A stretch of DNA of 64,000 nt from Candidatus Kerfeldbacteria bacterium (GTDB lineage: Bacteria; Patescibacteriota; Patescibacteriia; UBA10025; JAHIVO01), in NCBI GenBank assembly GCA_016214565.1, contig JACROE010000002.1:408007-472006 (forward strand), given 5' to 3'. Under the pieces are notes generated by a model. It did not search any database and had not been told where the DNA came from. It was given only the letters and a program-made list of their open reading frames with translations. A program made the translations under genes and the position numbers. The stretch's first letter is position 1; the number at the start of each line of letters is the position of its first letter. Below are positions 3,196 through 34,532 of this stretch, piece by piece.

Positions 3196-4887
3196 TTAGG
3201 TATTGGCCGCCCTTAAAACCTCGTCAACCGTGGTAATACCTCGTTTTGCCTTTTCCAGACCATCATCAAGCATAGTGCTCATCCCCTCGGCTATCGCCGC
3301 CTGGCGGATCACGTCGCTGTTTGCCCGTTGCATAATTAATTGCCGTATACGCTCCGTCATTTCGAGGACTTCAAAAATACCGACGCGCCCCTCAAAGCCA
3401 GTGTTATTGCACAACGCACATCCCTTGCCCCGATACAAACGAAATCCTTTTTCAGAAAAGCCAATTGCCTGCGCACGCGCCTCCCCAAGCAAGCTGGCAT
3501 AGCGCGACAATTCGACTGAATCTGGCGTATAGCTCTCAATGCACCCACGATGAATCTTGCGTACCAAGCGCTGAGCTAAAGCAACGTTTACCGTTGACGC
3601 AATCAAAAAAGGTTCGATTTTCATATCCAGCAGTCGGGGCAAGGTAGTCGGCGCGTCATTAGTGTGCAGCGTAGACAACACGAGGTGACCGGTCATAGCC
3701 GCATTGATGGCGATGCTGGCAGTCTCTTCATCTCGAATTTCACCCACCATAACAATATCAGGGTCTTGGCGGAGAATTGACCGCAAGCCAAGCGCAAACG
3801 TGAGATTGGTTTTTGAATCAACCTGTATCTGATTAACGCCATCAATATCATATTCGACCGGGTCTTCAATGGTAGAAATATTTACTTCACGCGTATTCAA
3901 AATTTTTAATAACGCATACAGGGTGGTGGTTTTACCGCTACCCGTGGGCCCGGTAGCTAAAATCATTCCGTGCGGCCGACGCACCGTCAGTTCAAGCTTA
4001 CGCATATCCGATTCGTTCATCCCCAGCTCTACCAGACTGAACTGACGGGATTTCTCGGTTAAGAGCCGCATCACAACTTTTTCTCCATCAGAAACAGGGA
4101 TGACTGAGACGCGGACGTCTACCTGCTCATCTTCGGTCGGGAAATCAAGGCGACCATCCTGAGCGGCCCGATGTTCATCCGTCCGCAGTTTGGCCATGAT
4201 TTTTATGCGAGTGATGATAAACGCATGCAATTCCTTGGGCAGCGTCACCACATCATGGAGAATGCCATCGATACGAAATCGGATGACCACTGATTCCTCG
4301 TGCGGTTCAATGTGCACATCGGAAGCCTTATTTTCATAGGCATAATGCAGAATTGTATCAACAATTCGCGTGATCGGCAGTTCGCGATTGGCCGCTGGCG
4401 TACCTTGCGCCGCCGCGACATTATGTTGAATAATATCATCAAAAGCCTCGGTCAACTCCTTGCGATAAAACTTCAACGCGTCATTAATATTGCGCACCGT
4501 AGTATAGTGCGGGATGACGCGATGGCCTGTTTTTTTCTCAATAAAATATTTCAGCTCCTCATTAGTTGGATCAACCATGGCGACCTTGAGGCCGTCACCG
4601 GTTTGCTCAAATGCGAGGAGGCGTTGGCGTTTTGCCACCAGCTCAGGAATGACCCGCAAAACCGAATCAGGAATCTGTTTGGTCGTCACGTTGACGTACG
4701 GTACGCTATATAGATCCGCGATAATTTGGCCGAGGTTTTCATCGCTGACTAATTCAGCTTCAACCAATTCCTGCTCAACCGAAGTATGGTGTTCACGCGC
4801 ACGCGCCACAGCCGAACTAAACTGATCCTCAGTAATAAGTTCAGCGGCAAGTAATTCACGCTTCAGCTGTTCCTGATCAAGCGCCAT
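3196..4887 (-). CDS. pilB: type IV pilus assembly ATPase PilB (GspE family)
   Basis: Walker A GPTGSGKTT, Asp/His boxes and a C-terminal CxxC...CxxC tetracysteine, plus an N-terminal GSPII_E_N-like domain. Likely start is MALDQEQ (4887); the track ORF extends to 4920. Confidence 0.9.
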   Translation of the reverse strand: MALDQEQLKRELLAAELITEDQFSSAVARAREHHTSVEQELVEAELVSDENLGQIIADLYSVPYVNVTTKQIPDSVLRVIPELVAKRQRLLAFEQTGDGLKVAMVDPTNEELKYFIEKKTGHRVIPHYTTVRNINDALKFYRKELTEAFDDIIQHNVAAAQGTPAANRELPITRIVDTILHYAYENKASDVHIEPHEESVVIRFRIDGILHDVVTLPKELHAFIITRIKIMAKLRTDEHRAAQDGRLDFPTEDEQVDVRVSVIPVSDGEKVVMRLLTEKSRQFSLVELGMNESDMRKLELTVRRPHGMILATGPTGSGKTTTLYALLKILNTREVNISTIEDPVEYDIDGVNQIQVDSKTNLTFALGLRSILRQDPDIVMVGEIRDEETASIAINAAMTGHLVLSTLHTNDAPTTLPRLLDMKIEPFLIASTVNVALAQRLVRKIHRGCIESYTPDSVELSRYASLLGEARAQAIGFSEKGFRLYRGKGCALCNNTGFEGRVGIFEVLEMTERIRQLIMQRANSDVIRQAAIAEGMSTMLDDGLEKAKRGITTVDEVLRAANT

Positions 4888-7625: not shown

Positions 7626-7898
7626 ATGCGTGGCTACGTCTACATATTGCGAGATAATAAAGGTAAACTATACATCGGCAGTACGATTGATCTCAACCGA
7701 CGTTTGACTCAACATCAGGTAGGCCACACGAAAACAACCCACCGAATGATTGAGCCAAAACTTGTATTCAAACAACTGTTCTCTACAATTGCTGAAGCCC
7801 GACGCACCGAACGAAAACTGAAAGCGTGGAAGCGTAAAGATTATATTGAAAAAATAATTGAAGACGGATATATTAGGATTACTCTTGCGCGCCCGTAG
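7626..7898 (+). CDS. small GIY-YIG nuclease-domain protein (UPF0213/YhbQ-like)
   Basis: MRGYVYILRDNKGKLYIGSTIDLNRRLTQHQ matches the GIY-YIG core (GIY, YIG, Arg, later Glu). 90 aa. Its last codons and stop (gcg cgc ccg tag) are the 5' acceptor stem of tRNA-Arg. Confidence 0.75.
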   Translation: MRGYVYILRDNKGKLYIGSTIDLNRRLTQHQVGHTKTTHRMIEPKLVFKQLFSTIAEARRTERKLKAWKRKDYIEKIIEDGYIRITLARP

Positions 7899-7963
7899 CT
7901 CAACGGATAGAGTGCTGGTCTTCGGAACCAGTGATGGGGGTTCGATTCCCTCCGGGCGCACCA
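7889..7963 (+). tRNA. tRNA-Arg (anticodon TCG)
   Basis: Cloverleaf by eye: acceptor GCGCCCG/CGGGCGC, D-arm GCTCAACGGATAGAGT, anticodon stem CTGGT/ACCAG with loop CTTCGGA (U33, TCG, G37), T-arm GGGGGTTCGATTCCCTC, encoded CCA. Confidence 0.85.
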
Positions 7964-7989
7964 AGCGACCGAGCGAACAGATTACTATC

Positions 7990-8066
7990 GGACGATTAGC
8001 TCAGTTGGTTAGAGCGCCTCGTTTACACCGAGGAGGTCGTAGGTTCGACTCCTACATCGTCCACCA
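7990..8066 (+). tRNA. tRNA-Val (anticodon TAC)
   Basis: Acceptor GGACGAT/ATCGTCC, D-arm GCTCAGTTGGTTAGAGC, anticodon stem CCTCG/CGAGG with loop TTTACAC, T-arm GTAGGTTCGACTCCTAC, encoded CCA. Confidence 0.85.
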
Positions 8067-8096
8067 CGAACGACAACTAACGGTTATCAATAACTT

Positions 8097-8348
8097 ATGC
8101 AATACGTCCTTGGCTTTATCATGATCGGTATCGGCTTCGTCATCACCTGGAAGGCTGACTGGCTGGTCAATAATTTTGGCAGAGTCGCCTGGGCCGAAGA
8201 ACATCTGGGTATGGACGGTGGCACCCGTCTATTCTGGAAATTAATTGGCATTATTGTTATTATCGGTTCATTCTTGTATATGACTGGTGCGCTGCAGGCA
8301 ATCATCCGTGGCATATTTGGCAGCTCATTTTCTTCGGTCAGCAGCTAG
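8097..8348 (+). CDS. small hypothetical membrane protein (2 TM)
   Basis: 83-aa ORF between tRNA-Val and tRNA-Ala with two clear hydrophobic helices. No recognisable motif. Confidence 0.4.
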   Translation: MQYVLGFIMIGIGFVITWKADWLVNNFGRVAWAEEHLGMDGGTRLFWKLIGIIVIIGSFLYMTGALQAIIRGIFGSSFSSVSS

Positions 8349-8514
8349 AAAACGAGACGCGTAGCAATACGGCCAATCAATAAATTTGAAAGGTCAATGG
8401 CAACACTCAATACCCGAGCCTGACCATAGGGCGGGCGAGGGAGAGGGGCAATGATGCCAAGGGTGCAGTGGACAGCGTCAGCTGTACGCGAAACCCGCAG
8501 CATCATTGAGACGA

Positions 8515-8590
8515 GGGCCCTTAGCTCATTTGGTAGAGCGCCGCGTTTGCAACGCGGAGGTGACCGGTTCGAGCCCGGTAGGGTCCACCA
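8515..8590 (+). tRNA. tRNA-Ala (anticodon TGC)
   Basis: Acceptor GGGCCCT/AGGGTCC including a G3:U70 wobble, the alanine identity element. D-arm GCTCATTTGGTAGAGC, anticodon stem CCGCG/CGCGG with loop TTTGCAA, T-arm ACCGGTTCGAGCCCGGT, encoded CCA. Confidence 0.85.
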
Positions 8591-17805: not shown

Positions 17806-18474
17806 ATGTCTATTATTGGTCCAAACATAGAAATTACTGAGTCAGATTGGCGCAATATGACCGACGAGCTACAGAATTACGCCCGCGGTCATTTTTGGCG
17901 CGACTATACCTGGCACGCCGCCCGCATGTCGGTGATTGACCCCGAACAATTTAAAAGTGTCCTCATCACTGATAATGAGTGGATAGGCATGCTGCGGGAA
18001 TTAGAAAACTACCGCCGCCAAGAAAATTGGGACGCTTTTGCCGCGCGCCTTGCGCGCATGAAGCTTATTGACGCCGAACGATCACGCAATATCGAAATCT
18101 CAGATGCGCAGTGGGCAAACATCCTCAACATACTGAAAAAAACTGTCATGCAAAACAATTGGATCCTCTTTGCCTCCCACGCGCACCACATGAAAACAAT
18201 TGATCCGGAGCGGTTCGCTAAAATTTCCATTGAAGACAAGGCGTGGCAAGGCATGCTAAAAAAACTTGATGAATTTCGAGGCAATGATATTGCAGGAAAA
18301 TTTACCAAGCACGCCTCATACCTGAAAAGTATTAATCCAGAACGATTCAAAGCAATTCGTATTTCTGCCTCTGATTGGCAAGTAATTGCCCAGGAGCTTC
18401 AACTCAAGCGACAAAAAAACTATTGGGCGGCATTTGCCGCACAAGCCAGCAGAATAAAAACGTTATTTGATTAA
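17806..18474 (+). CDS. unrecognised protein made of five tandem ~44-aa repeats
   Basis: Repeats at nt 17827-17964, 17965-18096, 18097-18228, 18229-18360 and 18361-18471. Consensus I-[STE]-[DE]-x-x-W-x-x-[MI]-L-x-x-L-x-x-[YF]-x4-NW-x2-FA-x4-[MI]-K-x-I-[DN]-PERF-K. I recognise no family. Confidence 0.55.
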   Translation: MSIIGPNIEITESDWRNMTDELQNYARGHFWRDYTWHAARMSVIDPEQFKSVLITDNEWIGMLRELENYRRQENWDAFAARLARMKLIDAERSRNIEISDAQWANILNILKKTVMQNNWILFASHAHHMKTIDPERFAKISIEDKAWQGMLKKLDEFRGNDIAGKFTKHASYLKSINPERFKAIRISASDWQVIAQELQLKRQKNYWAAFAAQASRIKTLFD

Positions 18475-18476
18475 CT

Positions 18477-19205
18477 ATGAATCAACTTCCTGTGAACCTT
18501 CGTATGTGGCGCAGCGCAATACTGCTTGCGTTCGGCATCTTGGTGGTGCTGGTGGGTTATGTGTACCTCTATAACGACGGATTAACGGCGCTCGCCTGGA
18601 GCCAGGCCGTGGCGGGCACTGCCGCACTCATGATTGGTATTTCTTTTGCCCTCTCTGGCATCGGCTACTGGTGGGATTTCCTGGATGCCCGCGTCGGCTA
18701 CCGTAAATATTACGGTCTAGTCGGGTACTATTTTGCCCTGCTACACTCGGTCATGCTGCTCTTCATCTTTCCCAATCGATATTGGTATGGATTTTTTGAA
18801 AACTTTTTTACACCAAACATCATCCTTGGCCTGATCGCCATGACCATTCTAACGATGATGGCAATTGTCTCAAATAATTGGGCAATGCGGCGCCTGGGGC
18901 CAATTCACTGGCGGCAACTCTTGCGCCTTGGATACCTCGCTTATGCGCTCTTAATTGTTCGAGCGCTATATATAGAAGGGGGGAATTGGCTTGCCTGGCT
19001 TCGATCATTTGATGGATTGCCGCCGCCTCGATTAATAGTCTCCATTTGTGCTGCCGCGGTTATTATCTTCCGTGGATCGGTATTTATTTCGAAAAAAGCG
19101 CGAGCGGCTCGAGCCCAGACGCTCGCCAGCCAGCCGGCACCGGCGTCAGCGGAAAATAAAACCCCCGCCGCTGATATGCACCAGGGCGGGGAGAGCAATC
19201 AATAA
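18477..19205 (+). CDS. polytopic membrane protein with spaced His residues (possibly ferric-reductase/MsrQ-like)
   Basis: About 6 TM helices with conserved-looking His in TM2 (ALLHSV) and at PIHW. The start is 3 nt after the repeat gene's stop, so it is in an operon. The heme-binding call is tentative. Confidence 0.4.
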   Translation: MNQLPVNLRMWRSAILLAFGILVVLVGYVYLYNDGLTALAWSQAVAGTAALMIGISFALSGIGYWWDFLDARVGYRKYYGLVGYYFALLHSVMLLFIFPNRYWYGFFENFFTPNIILGLIAMTILTMMAIVSNNWAMRRLGPIHWRQLLRLGYLAYALLIVRALYIEGGNWLAWLRSFDGLPPPRLIVSICAAAVIIFRGSVFISKKARAARAQTLASQPAPASAENKTPAADMHQGGESNQ

Positions 19206-19213
19206 CTGATTGC

Positions 19214-19741
19214 TTATTTGACGAGGCCGAGCCGGCCGATACGAGCCGCCACCGAGCCCAGGGGTCGCTGCATCAGTGCCGCAATTTCACGCCCGGTATG
19301 ACGGGGATAGAGCCGCCGCAACCGGCGATCTGCCTGTTTTGTCCAGGGCAATTCGACTCTCCCGTTACGGTGAATCGTTTTTTTGGTCAGGCCCAGTAAC
19401 TGCGCCTGATGGTAAATCGAGTCCCGGGTTCGCCGAAGCGAAATGCACAATTTCGCCATCGGAGTAGTCGCATACTGGCGACGAAGTTTGCGTTTTTCCG
19501 CGGCTGACCACGGTGTGCCTGATTTCACATGGATACGGGCCGAAACTTTCGGACGGCTGACCTGAGAGATTGGCTGTTTGTCGCCGAATACTGCCAGGAG
19601 CAGCCCGCGATATCGAAGGCAAATCGTCGGTTTGCCATTCATCGTGGTTGGCACCATTGACCGAGCGAATCTCAAACGCTGACCGAGCTGCTGCAGATTC
19701 CCCACCTGAACCGACGGTACCAAGGTTCCCTGTCGAGCCAT
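19214..19741 (-). CDS. DNA-binding protein with two tandem GcrA-like HTH repeats
   Basis: Repeats WSAAEKRKLRRQY....MAKLCISLRRTRDSIYHQAQLLGL and WTKQADRRLRRLY.RHTGREIAALMQRPLGSVAARIGRLGL match the GcrA N-terminal domain pattern W-[ST]-x2-E-R-x2-L-x2-L-[WY]...[IV]A..LG...[TN]AV..[KQ]..RLGL. Basic. The start may be an internal Met (MVPTT or MNGKP). Confidence 0.6.
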   Translation of the reverse strand: MARQGTLVPSVQVGNLQQLGQRLRFARSMVPTTMNGKPTICLRYRGLLLAVFGDKQPISQVSRPKVSARIHVKSGTPWSAAEKRKLRRQYATTPMAKLCISLRRTRDSIYHQAQLLGLTKKTIHRNGRVELPWTKQADRRLRRLYPRHTGREIAALMQRPLGSVAARIGRLGLVK

Positions 19742-19823
19742 ACTATCCTCCTTGATGCTGTGTAAGAGCTATTCTTCGTTTATATTCAGCAAACCTATCA
19801 CACGATTCAAACGAACGTCAAGT

Positions 19824-19862
19824 CATCAACATGACGTCTCCAAAGCTATGAAATAGATAACC
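19824..19862 (-). repeat. orphan copy of the queA 3' coding end (39 nt, 36/39 identical to 20604-20642)
   Basis: The reverse complement reads GYLFHSFGDVMLMT*, against the queA C-terminus YRFHSFGDAMLMV*. It lies about 85 nt upstream of the first GcrA-like gene. Confidence 0.75.
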
Positions 19863-20048
19863 ACACAGTACGATCGTCAACGACAGTACATTCCTTATGC
19901 ATATGATTTCCGTGTCTCAATATGTATCCCGAAGAAATGCCATAAGCTGCATTAAACTATCGTGTCGCCCAAATCCGCAATCCTAAGTAATATAAATAAA
20001 AAGAGAGCCCTTCATAGGACTCCCTTAACAGTATGACTTCCAGATAAC

Positions 20049-20480
20049 CTACCAGGCCACCAGCAGTCGCGGCCGCTTAAACCGTTTCGGCTCTCTGAGC
20101 TGACGCGGTGGCAGCTTATTGATGCTGAAGTAAGCTGCCTGCTTCCGTATGGCACTGGGAGTCCGTTTGAGCTGTGTGGCCATCCACCGGGTGATAGAGA
20201 ACGGATAGTATCGGCGCAAAAAGTTCAGTTCTGAACGAAGCCACGGCCGTTTGACATACTGCTTTTTGCTCCGCCATGTCCTTGATGCGGGCAACTCAAG
20301 CGCGCTATCTAACGCCATAAACCGGATTCTGATTCCGCACAATGCAGCCTGCTTACGCACGGCATTCATTGACCGACCAAGTCTCTCTGCTACCCATTCG
20401 GTGGGATACTCACCATAGAGCTCGAACAAAAGAAACCTTTCATTTTCGCTCCAACGATTGCCGGCTCGCTGTTGAGACAT
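20049..20480 (-). CDS. DNA-binding protein with two tandem GcrA-like HTH repeats (paralog)
   Basis: Repeats WSENERFLLFELYGEYPTEWVAERLGRSMNAVRKQAALCGI and WLRSELNFLRRYYPFSITRWMATQLKRTPSAIRKQAAYFSI, with the same architecture as 19214-19741 but diverged. A plausible minus-strand promoter lies about 60-95 nt upstream (TTGACA at 20571-20576 on the minus strand). Confidence 0.6.
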   Translation of the reverse strand: MSQQRAGNRWSENERFLLFELYGEYPTEWVAERLGRSMNAVRKQAALCGIRIRFMALDSALELPASRTWRSKKQYVKRPWLRSELNFLRRYYPFSITRWMATQLKRTPSAIRKQAAYFSINKLPPRQLREPKRFKRPRLLVAW

Positions 20481-20597
20481 GCGATATCCTCCTTCTGTTT
20501 TTCTATTTCAATATATCGAAGAACTATTATTTATCACGTGAATAGATTATATTAGCCCCCTATTAATTTGATTGTCAATAGGCGCTCATAGAGCGGC

Positions 20598-21632
20598 CTA
20601 CACCATCAACATAGCGTCTCCAAAGCTATGAAATCGATAACCGCGCCGCAGTCCACTGCGATAAGCGCGGAGAATCTTCTCTCGTCCAGCAAAAGCCGAT
20701 ACCAATAATAAAAGGCTTGATTGCGGTACATGAAAATTAGTAATCATGGCGTCCGTCATCCGGAACCCGTACCCGGGATAAATATAAGTATTGATCCAAC
20801 CCTGAAAAGCGCCGATGTGTTTTCGTGCCAGCGCGGTTTCTAACACTCGAACAGATGTGGTGCCCACCGCGATCACGCGCCGGCCTTCTTTCTTTGCTTG
20901 GTGAATCCGCCGCGCCGTTCCACCATCGACAACAGCATGTTCCCGATGCATACGATGCTTGGTAATATCATCGGTGGTAATCGGTTGAAACGTACCAAAA
21001 CCCACATGCAATGTCACATACTCCAGTTGCACACCCATACGTTTCAGTTTAAGCAACAACCGCTTGGTAAAATGAAACCCCGCTGTGGGCGCCGCCACGG
21101 AGCCGATCGGACCAGCATACACGGTTTGATAATCGGGCAATCGGGCAGCGCGTTTAATGTAGGGCGGGGTGGGGGTCGAACCAATCAACTCGGCAATACG
21201 CCGAACCCGATCGGGCAAAGCGGAAAATCGCACCTGCCAAACGCCGGCACTGCCTTGTTTGCTGATCACCCCCGATAACCCACGGCCAAACCGCAGCCGC
21301 ATTCCGATACGCCGAATTTTTCCGCCGATGAGCACCTCCCAAGTTTTGCCGTGCCTAGGACGCAATAAAAATACTTCGAGCTTACCGCCGGTTTCTTTCC
21401 GCGCCATTAATCGGGCGGGGAAGACTTTGCTGTTGTTGAAGACGAGGACGTCGCCCGGCTGAAGAAATTGGGGCAGATCAAAAAAATGGCGGTGCTGCAA
21501 AACGCCGGTCTGCCGATCCATCACCAACAACCGCGAGTGATCCCGCGGTCGGATTGGCTTCTGGGCAATTGCCTGCGACGGCACACGATAATCAAACTGT
21601 GCCAGGCGGAGTCGGGGGTAGCGTTTGGGCAT
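20598..21632 (-). CDS. queA: S-adenosylmethionine:tRNA ribosyltransferase-isomerase
   Basis: QueA-typical N-terminus (L.DFDY.VP...IAQ.P...RD.S.LLV) and C-terminus (GYRF.SFGDAMLM), about 340 aa. Confidence 0.85.
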   Translation of the reverse strand: MPKRYPRLRLAQFDYRVPSQAIAQKPIRPRDHSRLLVMDRQTGVLQHRHFFDLPQFLQPGDVLVFNNSKVFPARLMARKETGGKLEVFLLRPRHGKTWEVLIGGKIRRIGMRLRFGRGLSGVISKQGSAGVWQVRFSALPDRVRRIAELIGSTPTPPYIKRAARLPDYQTVYAGPIGSVAAPTAGFHFTKRLLLKLKRMGVQLEYVTLHVGFGTFQPITTDDITKHRMHREHAVVDGGTARRIHQAKKEGRRVIAVGTTSVRVLETALARKHIGAFQGWINTYIYPGYGFRMTDAMITNFHVPQSSLLLLVSAFAGREKILRAYRSGLRRGYRFHSFGDAMLMV

Positions 21633-22218
21633 TAGAAGTTGGTTGAGCAGCGCCGGGAGTAGTTATCGACGCCGCTGGTTGATAGGCATTATGTAAATCA
21701 AGGATGTGTTTGGCGACCAGGTCGGCATTCGGCACATCGGCAAACATGAACCGATCCTGCTCTGAAGCGGTTTGCACACTGATGCTACCATAACGGAAAA
21801 TAGTGGGAAGAAAACCCTTGGTCTCGCTACTCACATCTTGGATTTGATTGAGCAGTAATTCAGAGGTTGTGCGATGAAATAATCCATGCTGCTCCGTCGC
21901 AATAATCCGCTTATTAGTAATAAACCAAACGTCTAAATAATAATCAACCCAGGCATGGTAGATAAATAAAGTAATATACAGATAAAAAATACTGCCCAAT
22001 AACACCAGTAATAAATAAGCGAGACTAGCCTGATCGTCGAGTAGTATGGTGAATCGGTACAAGAGGAACACAATCACTACCGGCAGTATCCCGCCGATGA
22101 GAAACATGAAGATGCGGCTACCTAAGGCAACCTTATGCCGACGCAATACTTGATCAACCCGCTCGTCAGCCGATAATCCTGGCAGATAATAGTTACTCCA
22201 GTCCTTCATTGGCGTCAT
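21592..22218 (-). CDS. membrane protein with a bacterial PH (YdbT/YdbS-like) domain
   Basis: Two N-terminal TM helices, then a bPH_2-like block (WFITNKRIIATEQHGLFHRTTSELLLNQIQDV...). Overlaps queA by 41 nt. Confidence 0.5.
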   Translation of the reverse strand: MTPMKDWSNYYLPGLSADERVDQVLRRHKVALGSRIFMFLIGGILPVVIVFLLYRFTILLDDQASLAYLLLVLLGSIFYLYITLFIYHAWVDYYLDVWFITNKRIIATEQHGLFHRTTSELLLNQIQDVSSETKGFLPTIFRYGSISVQTASEQDRFMFADVPNADLVAKHILDLHNAYQPAASITTPGAAQPTSNAQTLPPTPPGTV

Positions 22219-28310: not shown

Positions 28311-28385
28311 GGCCCCATCGTCTAACGGTTAGGACACCACGCTTTCAATGTGGTAACCGGGGTTCGATTCCCCGTGGGGCTACCA
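28311..28385 (+). tRNA. tRNA-Glu (anticodon TTC)
   Basis: Acceptor GGCCCCA/TGGGGCT, D-arm GTCTAACGGTTAGGAC, anticodon stem CCACG/TGTGG with loop CTTTCAA, T-arm CGGGGTTCGATTCCCCG, encoded CCA. Confidence 0.8.
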
Positions 28386-32720: not shown

Positions 32721-34532
32721 TTATTTGGTGACTTTGAATACTTCATCGATTGTGGTAATGCCCTGCAAAGCCTTGAGAATGCCATCCTGCTGCATAGTTA
32801 ACATACCCGCCTTGTGACCCTCTTCTTTAAGGGCGTATTCAGAAACCTTGCCTGACAAGATCAGTTGTTCAATATTTGGATTCATAGTCAGCATTTCAAA
32901 TATACCGATACGTCCACGAAACCCGGTTTCATGGTTTTCCGGTGTTGGGATACCCCGATAAAATTTCAGATGCTGTGAATCGACGTTTCTCCGCATCTCC
33001 TGCGGAATGGATTCAAGCACTTGATGCACCAATTCAAGCTGGGCCGCTTCAGGCGTATATTCCTCCTTATGCGCCGGGTCAATCCGACGAACCAGCCGCT
33101 GACCGATTAATAAATTCAAAGCGGGTGCTAAGAGAAATGGTCGGACATTCATCGCCAACAACCGCGGGATGGCTCCGGCGGCGCTATTCGTGTGCAGCGT
33201 TGAAAGCATGAGATGCCCGGTCAAAGCTGCCTGAATGGCAATTTCTGCCGTTTCTTGATCTCGAATTTCACCGACCATCACAATGTCGGGATCTTGGCGT
33301 AAGACCGCCCGCAGTCCAGTGGCAAACGTAAACTGCTGCCGGCCGGTCGTTCCCGACTTCAATAAAGTACGGATGTCTTCTTTTTCGCCCGATTGCTCGC
33401 CGCCCTGCACTTGGCTCTGGGTCACACCCTTCAAACGATATTCAATCGGGTTTTCCAGAGTAATTATTTTTGATTCTGGGCTGTTCAATTTTTTTAATAT
33501 CGCATACAGCGTCGTCGTTTTACCAGAGCCAGTGGGGCCAGTCGTGATAATCATGCCATTCGGTCGGCTCATTTCTCGAATCAATATGTCGTAGGCGGGA
33601 CCAACCAAGCCCATGCCGTCCAGTCCAATGCCGGTGGATGATGACATAAGCAACCGCATCACAATACTTTCGCCATACGCGCTCGGTACTGTCGATACAC
33701 GCACGTCAATAAAATCATTCGTCATGAAGATGGTAAACCGACCGTCTTGGGGGATATCTGAAACGTTTATTTTTAGTTTGGCCAATAATTTCACTCGATT
33801 AATCACCTTGGGCCACATCTTCTTCTGCAACATGGCAGCGTCATACAACACGCCATCAACGCGAAATCGAACCTTGACGTCATCTTGCTCTGCTTCGATA
33901 TGCACATCCGATGCCTGGGACTGGATAGCGGTGGCCATGATGATGGTAAATAGGTCGCTGGTAGAGACATGCTGGATCTTTTCCTGAAGCTCACGGAATG
34001 ATTTTATGTCTCGTTGGTATTTCTTCAAATCCTCCTCCTTAATCTCAATACCAGCCACGTACGTGCGTGGGCGGGGGAGGGCGGCATACAGCTTCAATGC
34101 TGCATCCAAGCTAAGTGCGGACAACGCATATAAATCACCATGACACTGTGTTTCTTCCTGAATGGCATCAAATTTTTTCTGCACTTCGGGATCGAGAGGA
34201 TTAATCGCTCCCAAACGAAATTCGCGGTCAGTCTTAAAAAAACAGACCGCCTGCAACGATCGGGCCACGTCTTCATCTATCAAGATAAGAGCTTCAGGCG
34301 CAATCGGGAACCCTTTCAGGTTAATATATCCGACGCCCATTCGCTGCGCCTCTTCCTGAGTTGCCTCCTCTTTCCTCTTGGCTTCAATTTCATGAATCTT
34401 TGATTTCAATTTTTCTTCAACCTCTTCAGATGAAACCTGTGGGGCGCCATCGTGAGATTGACGAATCAAGTCATCAATACTTCGCTCATGTTTTGAAGTA
34501 ATATCCTGGTTCATACCCACGCAGTATACCAA
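32721..34532 (-). CDS. second GspE/PilB-family secretion/pilus ATPase (orphan)
   Basis: Walker A GPTGSGKTT, Asp and His boxes, an N-terminal GSPII_E_N-like domain. No CxxC tetrad seen at the C-terminus. It is not next to other pilus genes. Confidence 0.85.
   Translation of the reverse strand: MVYCVGMNQDITSKHERSIDDLIRQSHDGAPQVSSEEVEEKLKSKIHEIEAKRKEEATQEEAQRMGVGYINLKGFPIAPEALILIDEDVARSLQAVCFFKTDREFRLGAINPLDPEVQKKFDAIQEETQCHGDLYALSALSLDAALKLYAALPRPRTYVAGIEIKEEDLKKYQRDIKSFRELQEKIQHVSTSDLFTIIMATAIQSQASDVHIEAEQDDVKVRFRVDGVLYDAAMLQKKMWPKVINRVKLLAKLKINVSDIPQDGRFTIFMTNDFIDVRVSTVPSAYGESIVMRLLMSSSTGIGLDGMGLVGPAYDILIREMSRPNGMIITTGPTGSGKTTTLYAILKKLNSPESKIITLENPIEYRLKGVTQSQVQGGEQSGEKEDIRTLLKSGTTGRQQFTFATGLRAVLRQDPDIVMVGEIRDQETAEIAIQAALTGHLMLSTLHTNSAAGAIPRLLAMNVRPFLLAPALNLLIGQRLVRRIDPAHKEEYTPEAAQLELVHQVLESIPQEMRRNVDSQHLKFYRGIPTPENHETGFRGRIGIFEMLTMNPNIEQLILSGKVSEYALKEEGHKAGMLTMQQDGILKALQGITTIDEVFKVTK

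Follow-up and report, generated by a model that had tools for sequence, protein, structure and literature searches.

How does a small gene come to lie between two copies of the end of its neighbour? The question is raised by a 64-kb window (the whole stretch of DNA that was analysed, 64,000 nucleotides) from a metagenome-assembled genome (MAG) of Candidatus Kerfeldbacteria, representing an uncultured bacterium of groundwater. Here the last codons of queA, the gene for tRNA preQ1(34) S-adenosylmethionine ribosyltransferase-isomerase, recur downstream as a 39-nt direct repeat. Between the live copy inside queA and the orphan copy sits a gene for a small helix-turn-helix (HTH) protein, which we call P2, and a second gene of the same protein family, P1, follows the orphan. 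Comparison with a related locus indicates that the window carries a 780-bp insertion, made up of 741 unique nucleotides and one copy of the repeat, within the last 45 nt of queA; we refer to the inserted DNA as the cassette. We favour entry by conservative site-specific recombination within a 39-nt core resembling an attachment (att) site, a reading to which we assign a probability of roughly 0.45–0.5.

The insertion is apparent because a metagenome contig of 2.5 kb, L083 (about 75% nucleotide identity to the window), has queA directly followed by P1 and a single queA end (787–824) that aligns to both window copies of the repeat. The two genes are separated by 78 nt in L083 and are followed by the same convergent membrane gene, and P2 is absent; this is the arrangement that the original prediction had proposed to look for in relatives, queA followed directly by one GcrA-like gene. 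In BLASTN comparison, positions 3–824 of L083 correspond to 21426–20605 of the window and positions 787–2481 to 19862–18169. In a three-way alignment the orphan, its ACT-TGA tail and the sequence that follows are homologous to the queA end of L083 (GCT-TGA) and to its queA–P1 spacer. The live copy is homologous to L083 on its upstream side only, its GTG-TAG tail and the downstream sequence being new, and the final 6 nt of the live and ancestral queA ends differ at five of six positions. In the ancestral queA the cassette entered between ...TTGATG and ACTTGA. Relative to L083 the two window copies have 6–7 derived bases in common, which dates the duplication to after the divergence from the L083 lineage. 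That this lineage instead lost P2 precisely, by recombination between the repeats, is a formal possibility.

The two copies of the repeat are identical at 36 of 39 positions, are spaced 780 nt apart and constitute the best direct repeat of the window (blastn E = 3e-11). Both the recurrence of the queA end and the presence of a stop codon of its own in the orphan, which reads ...GYLFHSFGDVMLMT*, had been recognized in the original prediction and are confirmed. The live copy comprises the last 13 full codons preceding the final codon of queA, and the orphan lies between P2 and P1. All three differences of the orphan from the live copy are non-synonymous. The change of CGA to CTA replaces R by L at a position occupied by R in 114 of the 116 QueA homologues that carry the C-terminal motif, and that of GCT to GTC replaces A by V at a position where all 116 homologues have A, G or S and never V. 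The orphan, which runs on directly into the old queA–P1 spacer, is the displaced ancestral end of queA, and its changes at conserved positions mark it as a decaying relic. A third, degenerate copy of the queA end, the search for which was prompted by the 8-mer GGTTATCT at the P2 stop, was not found at a significant level downstream of P2 or P1 (p 0.25–0.3). An artefact of assembly is ruled out, because two independent Logan assemblies, obtained from different sequencing runs, are 100% identical across the whole structure.

The cassette appears to form a complete, self-contained transcription unit with promoter, ribosome-binding site, P2 and terminator (Table 1), and the near-consensus promoter reported earlier for P2 is indeed present. 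Its six bases GTG TAG, together with the upstream copy of the repeat, complete a QueA of normal length: exactly three residues follow the GDxM motif in 114 of 116 homologues, and the live queA end keeps this canonical length. Past the terminator the cassette continues as an AT-rich spacer of 138 nt. The 243-nt stretch 3' of P2 folds no better than shuffled sequences, the terminator aside (z -0.28), and Rfam shows no RNA family in the region. For the cassette, scans with Pfam, PHROG and other domain collections gave no integrase or transposase, a repeat search no terminal inverted repeats, and Rfam no known RNA; the window holds no second copy of it, and no phage genes were seen nearby. At the right end of the cassette, adjoining the orphan repeat, the heptamer ACAGTAC occurs twice (19865–19871 and 19883–19889, 18 nt apart), which accounts for two of its seven occurrences in the 64-kb window; the pair flanks the palindrome ACGATCGT and could represent protein-binding sites or chance.

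Table 1. Coordinates of the features at the queA–P2–P1 locus, in window positions
Feature	Position	Strand	Remarks
queA, 344 aa	20598-21632	minus	intact; Pfam PF02547 Queuosine_synth 2.6e-121; named QueA in the NCBI record of the Kerfeldbacteria MAG
P2, 143 aa, pI 11.4	20049-20480	minus	two Myb/GcrA-DBD-like three-helix HTH domains (DBD, DNA-binding domain), flexible linker, basic C-terminal tail
P1, 175 aa, pI 12.0	19214-19741	minus	N-terminal ~70 aa, then two HTH units of the family of P2
Repeat, live copy, 39 nt	20604-20642	minus	codons for GYRFHSFGDAMLM of QueA
Repeat, orphan copy, 39 nt	19824-19862	minus	encodes GYLFHSFGDVMLM; 36/39 identical to the live copy
Present last codon of queA, GTG (Val), and stop TAG	20598-20603	minus	non-homologous to the ancestral tail; cassette-derived
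Displaced queA end: ancestral last codon and stop, ACT TGA	19818-19823	minus	L083 equivalent GCT TGA
Cassette, unique part, 741 nt	19863-20603	minus	with one repeat copy, 780-nt insertion relative to L083
P2 promoter, sigma-70-type, TTGACA-18 nt-TAATAT, 10/12	20549-20578	minus	predicted, from the consensus match alone
P2 Shine-Dalgarno sequence AAGGAGGA, 6 nt 5' of ATG	20487-20494	minus	read from the sequence
Intrinsic terminator-like hairpin, 11 pairs, then TTTTATTTAT	20001-20026	minus	just past the P2 stop; hairpin also in the RNA fold
Native queA-P1 spacer with P1 ribosome-binding site (AAGGAGGA)	19742-19817	minus	homologous to L083 832-909

What could have placed the cassette inside queA? 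Under site-specific recombination, the reading we favour, it would be a non-autonomous or decayed integrative element that retains attL and attR and whose recombinase was lost or acted in trans. The element would have brought with it a mimic of the queA end, allowing the target gene to survive. Its layout resembles that of att-flanked elements, with flanking direct repeats, one of them inside the 3' end of an intact target gene, and with an empty site in a relative. Also consistent with an att-like core are the 39-nt block of identity at a gene 3' end that is regenerated at canonical length, and the perfect inverted repeat CATAGC-N9-GCTATG in the live copy (6-9-6; 20610–20630; spacer TTTGGAGAC; p about 0.016 in shuffled 39-mers, post hoc), which a CT>TC change has destroyed in the orphan.

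Several observations weigh against this reading. The inverted repeat is short, was spotted post hoc and is not present in L083, which is itself the only relative with an empty site. The integrase expected of an att element is not encoded by the cassette, whose sole gene is P2. Searches for an integrase or another recombinase, which covered the cassette, the called genes up to about 5 kb away and ten further open reading frames (ORFs) but no other part of the window or of the 1.1-Mb genome, were negative; the ten tested window ORFs, near tRNA genes and elsewhere, are all housekeeping. At four other loci of the HTH family the genes lack flanking gene-end repeats. Neither the cassette nor P2 had a second copy or a relative in any of the collections searched, including IMG/VR, phage genomes and JGI metagenomes (these three were queried with P2, with the P1/P2 alignment and with 20 nt of the repeat), and therefore the mobility of the unit as such is undocumented. 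Finally, DNA binding and regulation by P2 are read from its fold alone. Of the att-like bracketing proposed in the original prediction, the insertion that regenerated the queA end stands, given the empty site in L083, while the att mechanism is the likeliest of several routes.

The abruptness with which homology halts at both ends of the 39 nt could also be accounted for by a true target-site duplication, in which staggered cuts 39 nt apart were made by a transposase-, casposase- or Cas1-like enzyme, or by a repair accident, and then filled in as an unrelated piece of DNA was inserted. Such an origin would predict copies that started out identical, which is probably the case here, as they differ only by decay-type changes in the orphan. 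The length of 39 nt, however, is far beyond the target duplications of known transposases, which span 2–15 nt, and the cassette has neither a transposase domain nor the terminal inverted repeats of a transposon or insertion sequence. For the in-frame valine codon and stop at the left end one would have to invoke luck or selection; we estimate from the tails of QueA homologues that random DNA would provide a stop at the canonical position with a chance of about 4–5%. We regard a duplication of this kind as improbable.

General recombination is the more serious competitor of site-specific recombination within an att-like core, and an unlikely one in our judgement. DNA of a closely related strain could have been anchored by homology in queA and joined illegitimately at its other end (homology-facilitated illegitimate recombination), or a small circle carrying a queA end could have entered through a Campbell-type single crossover, and in either case the 39-nt repeat would be what remained of the resident queA beyond the junction, on its downstream side. 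The resulting topology is identical to that observed, no recombinase was found in the regions examined, and the cassette ends queA in frame and at canonical length, with a last codon and stop like those of an authentic donor queA. A donor that is (near-)identical over 39 nt would, however, be closer to the window than L083 is, and should have a P1 orthologue of more than 77% identity rather than a gene of 25%. The divergence of the final six nucleotides lies right beside 39 nt that were probably identical, and no donor was found. Moreover, the sliding identity of queA to L083 is uniform along the gene (0.67–0.78), with no imported tract seen at this low resolution.

Variation at the junction between queA and the membrane gene across the clade speaks in favour of general recombination as well. 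Four more distant relatives (L004, L088, L089 and L090; QueA identity 64–69%) share the order RuvB, sortase, small ORF, bPH_2, queA, convergent membrane gene, 222-aa repeat protein and SpoIID, and carry no P-like gene. In L088 and L090 queA abuts the membrane gene directly, and in the other two the junction is occupied by unrelated genes, a 181-aa membrane ORF in L004 (6018–6570) and an extra gene of 242 aa in L089 (5015–6830). With P1 at this place in L083, and P2 and P1 in the window (19205–20600), the junction is a variable spot. Since the four more distant relatives carry neither P gene, P1 itself is an older insertion at the same spot, common to L083 and the window, which was followed later by P2. 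P-like genes are likewise absent from all 79 queA loci examined in GTDB species genomes.

The adjacency of two genes of the same rare family, in the order end-gene-end-gene, is also what would be expected of an ancient in-place tandem duplication of the queA end together with an HTH gene. Such a history would require extreme divergence of the genes, preservation of the repeats by gene conversion and a precise loss in the L083 lineage, where recombination between the repeats could have removed one unit cleanly. Yet P1 shares 77% identity with its L083 orthologue (P0003, its only close relative) as against 25% with P2 (E 2e-6), and each of the two is closer to other members of the family: P1 to P0145 (40% identity, E 3e-16), and P2 to P0143 and P0044 (about E 5e-13). 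The P1 and P2 units show no nucleotide similarity beyond the 39-nt repeat and the ribosome-binding site, the orphan has decayed instead of being converted to the live copy, and the four outgroups are without either gene. An ancient tandem duplication is thus largely refuted and very improbable; the original prediction had likewise argued against a simple old duplication. Nor do the units bear the marks of a recent one, as they are not mutual closest relatives and retain no residual nucleotide similarity. Judging from these sequence comparisons, P1 and P2 are not recent duplicates but belong independently to one large family of HTH proteins, of the tandem Myb/GcrA-DBD-like type.

The description of P1 and P2 as small basic proteins with two copies of a motif each is upheld by their ORFs, their isoelectric points (pI) and the units of about 43 aa that are apparent from BLASTP self- and cross-matches, alignment and AlphaFold modelling. 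The consensus of the unit is W-T-x2-E-x3-L-x3-Y-...-[IL]A-x2-LGR[ST]-x2-A[IV]-x3-A-x2-LGL. In the AlphaFold model of P2, for which a 27-sequence alignment was used, residues 10–50 and 80–120 form three-helix bundles with a predicted local distance difference test score (pLDDT) above 90 (a single-sequence run gave 53), joined by a linker of about 30 aa that is predicted to be flexible. P1 ends at its second HTH, and P2 extends beyond it by a basic tail of 20 aa. Residues 1–70 of P1 (19532–19741) are conserved in the L083 orthologue and belong to no detectable family; within them, residues ~43–66 (RYRGLLLAVFGDKQPISQVSRPKV) resemble a degenerate third HTH repeat.

Neither protein has a significant match in Pfam, NCBIfam or PADLOC, and a word-based search for homologues returned no relative of P2 and, for P1, one orthologue and one distant match. 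Both proteins match PHROG 323, 'transcriptional regulator, D5-like' (6e-15 and 5.5e-12). The family itself is large: at E<=1e-3 an exhaustive HMMER search with a four-sequence profile gathered 10,436 cluster representatives, of which the top 150 are mostly proteins of 200–900 aa with 3–10 matched stretches of the two-repeat profile. Few members have names; these stem from Bacteroidota, Kapabacteria and metagenomes and mostly carry the label hypothetical. Many phage proteins of 100–200 aa share the tandem-HTH fold. The gene of P0143, the closest relative of P2, lies on contig L085 between genes for a LexA-like repressor and an M48 peptidase; its upstream region (6–159 and 617–721) contains a perfect direct repeat 61 nt long, with a spacing of 93 nt, and a tandem array of a 7-nt unit (CAGAAGT/G).

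The original prediction had identified the motif with the DNA-binding domain of GcrA. As a statement about the fold this holds, and a profile of the 27 sequences matches among PDB sequences Cbp2 (2lvs; 2.7e-7, over both repeats), c-Myb R2R3 (1.3e-6) and the GcrA DNA-binding domain (5yiu; 0.0084). Because of these matches we classify the unit as a GcrA-DBD/Myb-like HTH. It is a Myb/homeodomain-like three-helix bundle with the GcrA DNA-binding domain as its best structural match; the top match of Foldseek in the PDB, a weak one (E 0.075), is Cbp2. As an assignment to the GcrA family the identification fails, for the suggested check with the Pfam GcrA model (PF07750) yields no match to P1 or P2 even at E<=10. 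Ten relatives from the family match Myb_DNA-binding, Sigma70_r4_2 and other HTH models of Pfam, and seven of them pass the gathering score of GcrA, always on model positions 2 to ~50–60 only. Family relatives likewise pass the Myb thresholds of Pfam, and P1 and P2 themselves have no direct Pfam Myb match (PF00249, PF13921).

GcrA preferentially binds promoters with GANTC sites carrying N6-methyladenine (m6A). In Caulobacter crescentus GcrA (PDB 5yiu) the C-terminal domain interacts with sigma-70 (region 2) and defines the function of the protein (PMC5887438). P1 and P2 are not GcrA because they are without this domain; the label is valid for them at the level of the fold only, that of the DNA-binding domain which they have in common with GcrA. 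They differ from it further in their two tandem HTH units and in their host, a member of Patescibacteria instead of an alphaproteobacterium. From c-Myb R2R3 and other SANT/Myb proteins they are set apart by their bacterial origin and by the long inter-repeat linker, besides the lack of a direct Pfam match. Cbp2, an archaeal CRISPR-repeat-binding double homeodomain-like protein (PDB 2lvs; PMC3597662), is likewise small and basic and consists of two HTH domains and a linker only, but it belongs to another domain of life, and the window holds no CRISPR array.

The most likely role of P2 is in transcription regulation or a comparable DNA-binding function, which it would exert, as its predicted architecture suggests, as a monomeric bipartite DNA-binding protein. 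Each of its three-helix domains would recognise one half-site in the major groove, in the way of c-Myb R2R3 or Cbp2 (PMC3597662), and the basic tail would add non-specific DNA contacts. An HTH module that recognises the queA 3' region also figures in the idea that P1 and P2 are nuclease-less descendants of free-standing homing endonuclease genes of the phage type, which would explain why two genes landed at one place. Three observations point in this direction: the HTH region weakly matches an HNH endonuclease family of PHROG (3.7e-5), HNH, endonuclease I and Vsr-like proteins with the same tandem HTH are among the BFVD neighbours, and two independent family members occur at one locus. Yet no nuclease domain or remnant of one was detected in P1 or P2, and homing does not normally duplicate its target sequence. 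The spot between the convergent genes is permissive in any case, as the unrelated genes of L004 and L089 attest. We consider a homing-endonuclease-derived origin compatible with the data, unsupported by them and, on the whole, a long shot.

Returning to site-specific recombination within an att-like core, the closest known counterparts of the cassette are cis-mobilizable elements (CIMEs) and decayed islands at gene 3' ends (PMC5704250), which likewise have no integration genes and leave the target gene intact. The cassette differs from them in measuring only 780 bp, in its single gene, in having no known parental element, cognate integrase or excision, and in its uncultured host from the Candidate Phyla Radiation (CPR). 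The small tandem-HTH phage proteins of PHROG 323 share the fold of P1 and P2, which both match them significantly; P2, however, has no tblastn match in 50,697 phage genomes, and the P1/P2 alignment has no relative in IMG/VR. One may go further and imagine that the small tandem-HTH genes of the family are the cargo or targeting module of integrase-less, single-gene CPR cassettes, which would be mobilised in trans, insert repeatedly at the queA 3' end through a core of about 39 nt and stack there, P1 first and then P2, in the manner of integron cassettes or pdif modules. We think this conjecture quite improbable.

As to the surroundings of the locus, the source MAG of Candidatus Kerfeldbacteria lists genes HZC01_02150 and HZC01_02155 on a contig of 1.116 Mb. 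The convergent membrane gene, which is Ferric_reduct-like, occupies 18477–19205 on the plus strand, and its stop lies 8 nt from that of P1. Next to it, at 17806–18474 (+), a 222-aa ORF with no Pfam match on record appears by eye to consist of about five internal repeats of ~45 aa with the pattern ..W..FA...A.MK.IDPERF..I.I.D..W..; an ORF of equal length is found at the same position in all five related loci, and the L004 copy is clearly homologous. On the other side, the first 41 nt of queA (21592–21632) lie within the 3' end of the preceding bPH_2-domain gene (21592–22218), an overlap that recurs in the relatives. The window further contains three clustered tRNA genes and an isolated one (7889–8587 and 28311–28382), and among the tested ORFs (T2SSE-type ATPase, O-antigen ligase, Hsp20, TsaD) no integrase or island adjoins them. 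A 195-nt direct repeat of 70% identity (3607–3801 and 33135–33329, 29.5 kb apart) probably reflects two paralogous genes.

The queA locus is a well-documented but unexceptional insertion scar, a fairly ordinary trace of horizontal gene insertion, for which known kinds suffice: a small att-flanked insertion at a gene 3' end and a Myb/GcrA-DBD-like tandem-HTH protein. Its value lies in offering a clean, base-resolved case of gene gain in a CPR genome. Genomes of these bacteria are small and streamlined, and few mobile elements are known from them. The locus exemplifies how a conserved tRNA-modification gene can accept an insertion in its last codons if the incoming DNA restores the reading frame. 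It also draws attention to the tandem Myb/GcrA-DBD-like HTH proteins as a large family, with more than 10,000 representative clusters, that is common to bacteria and phages and whose members, where looked up, are mostly unnamed. If the repeats are truly recombination sites, few known att-flanked units would be as small as the cassette.

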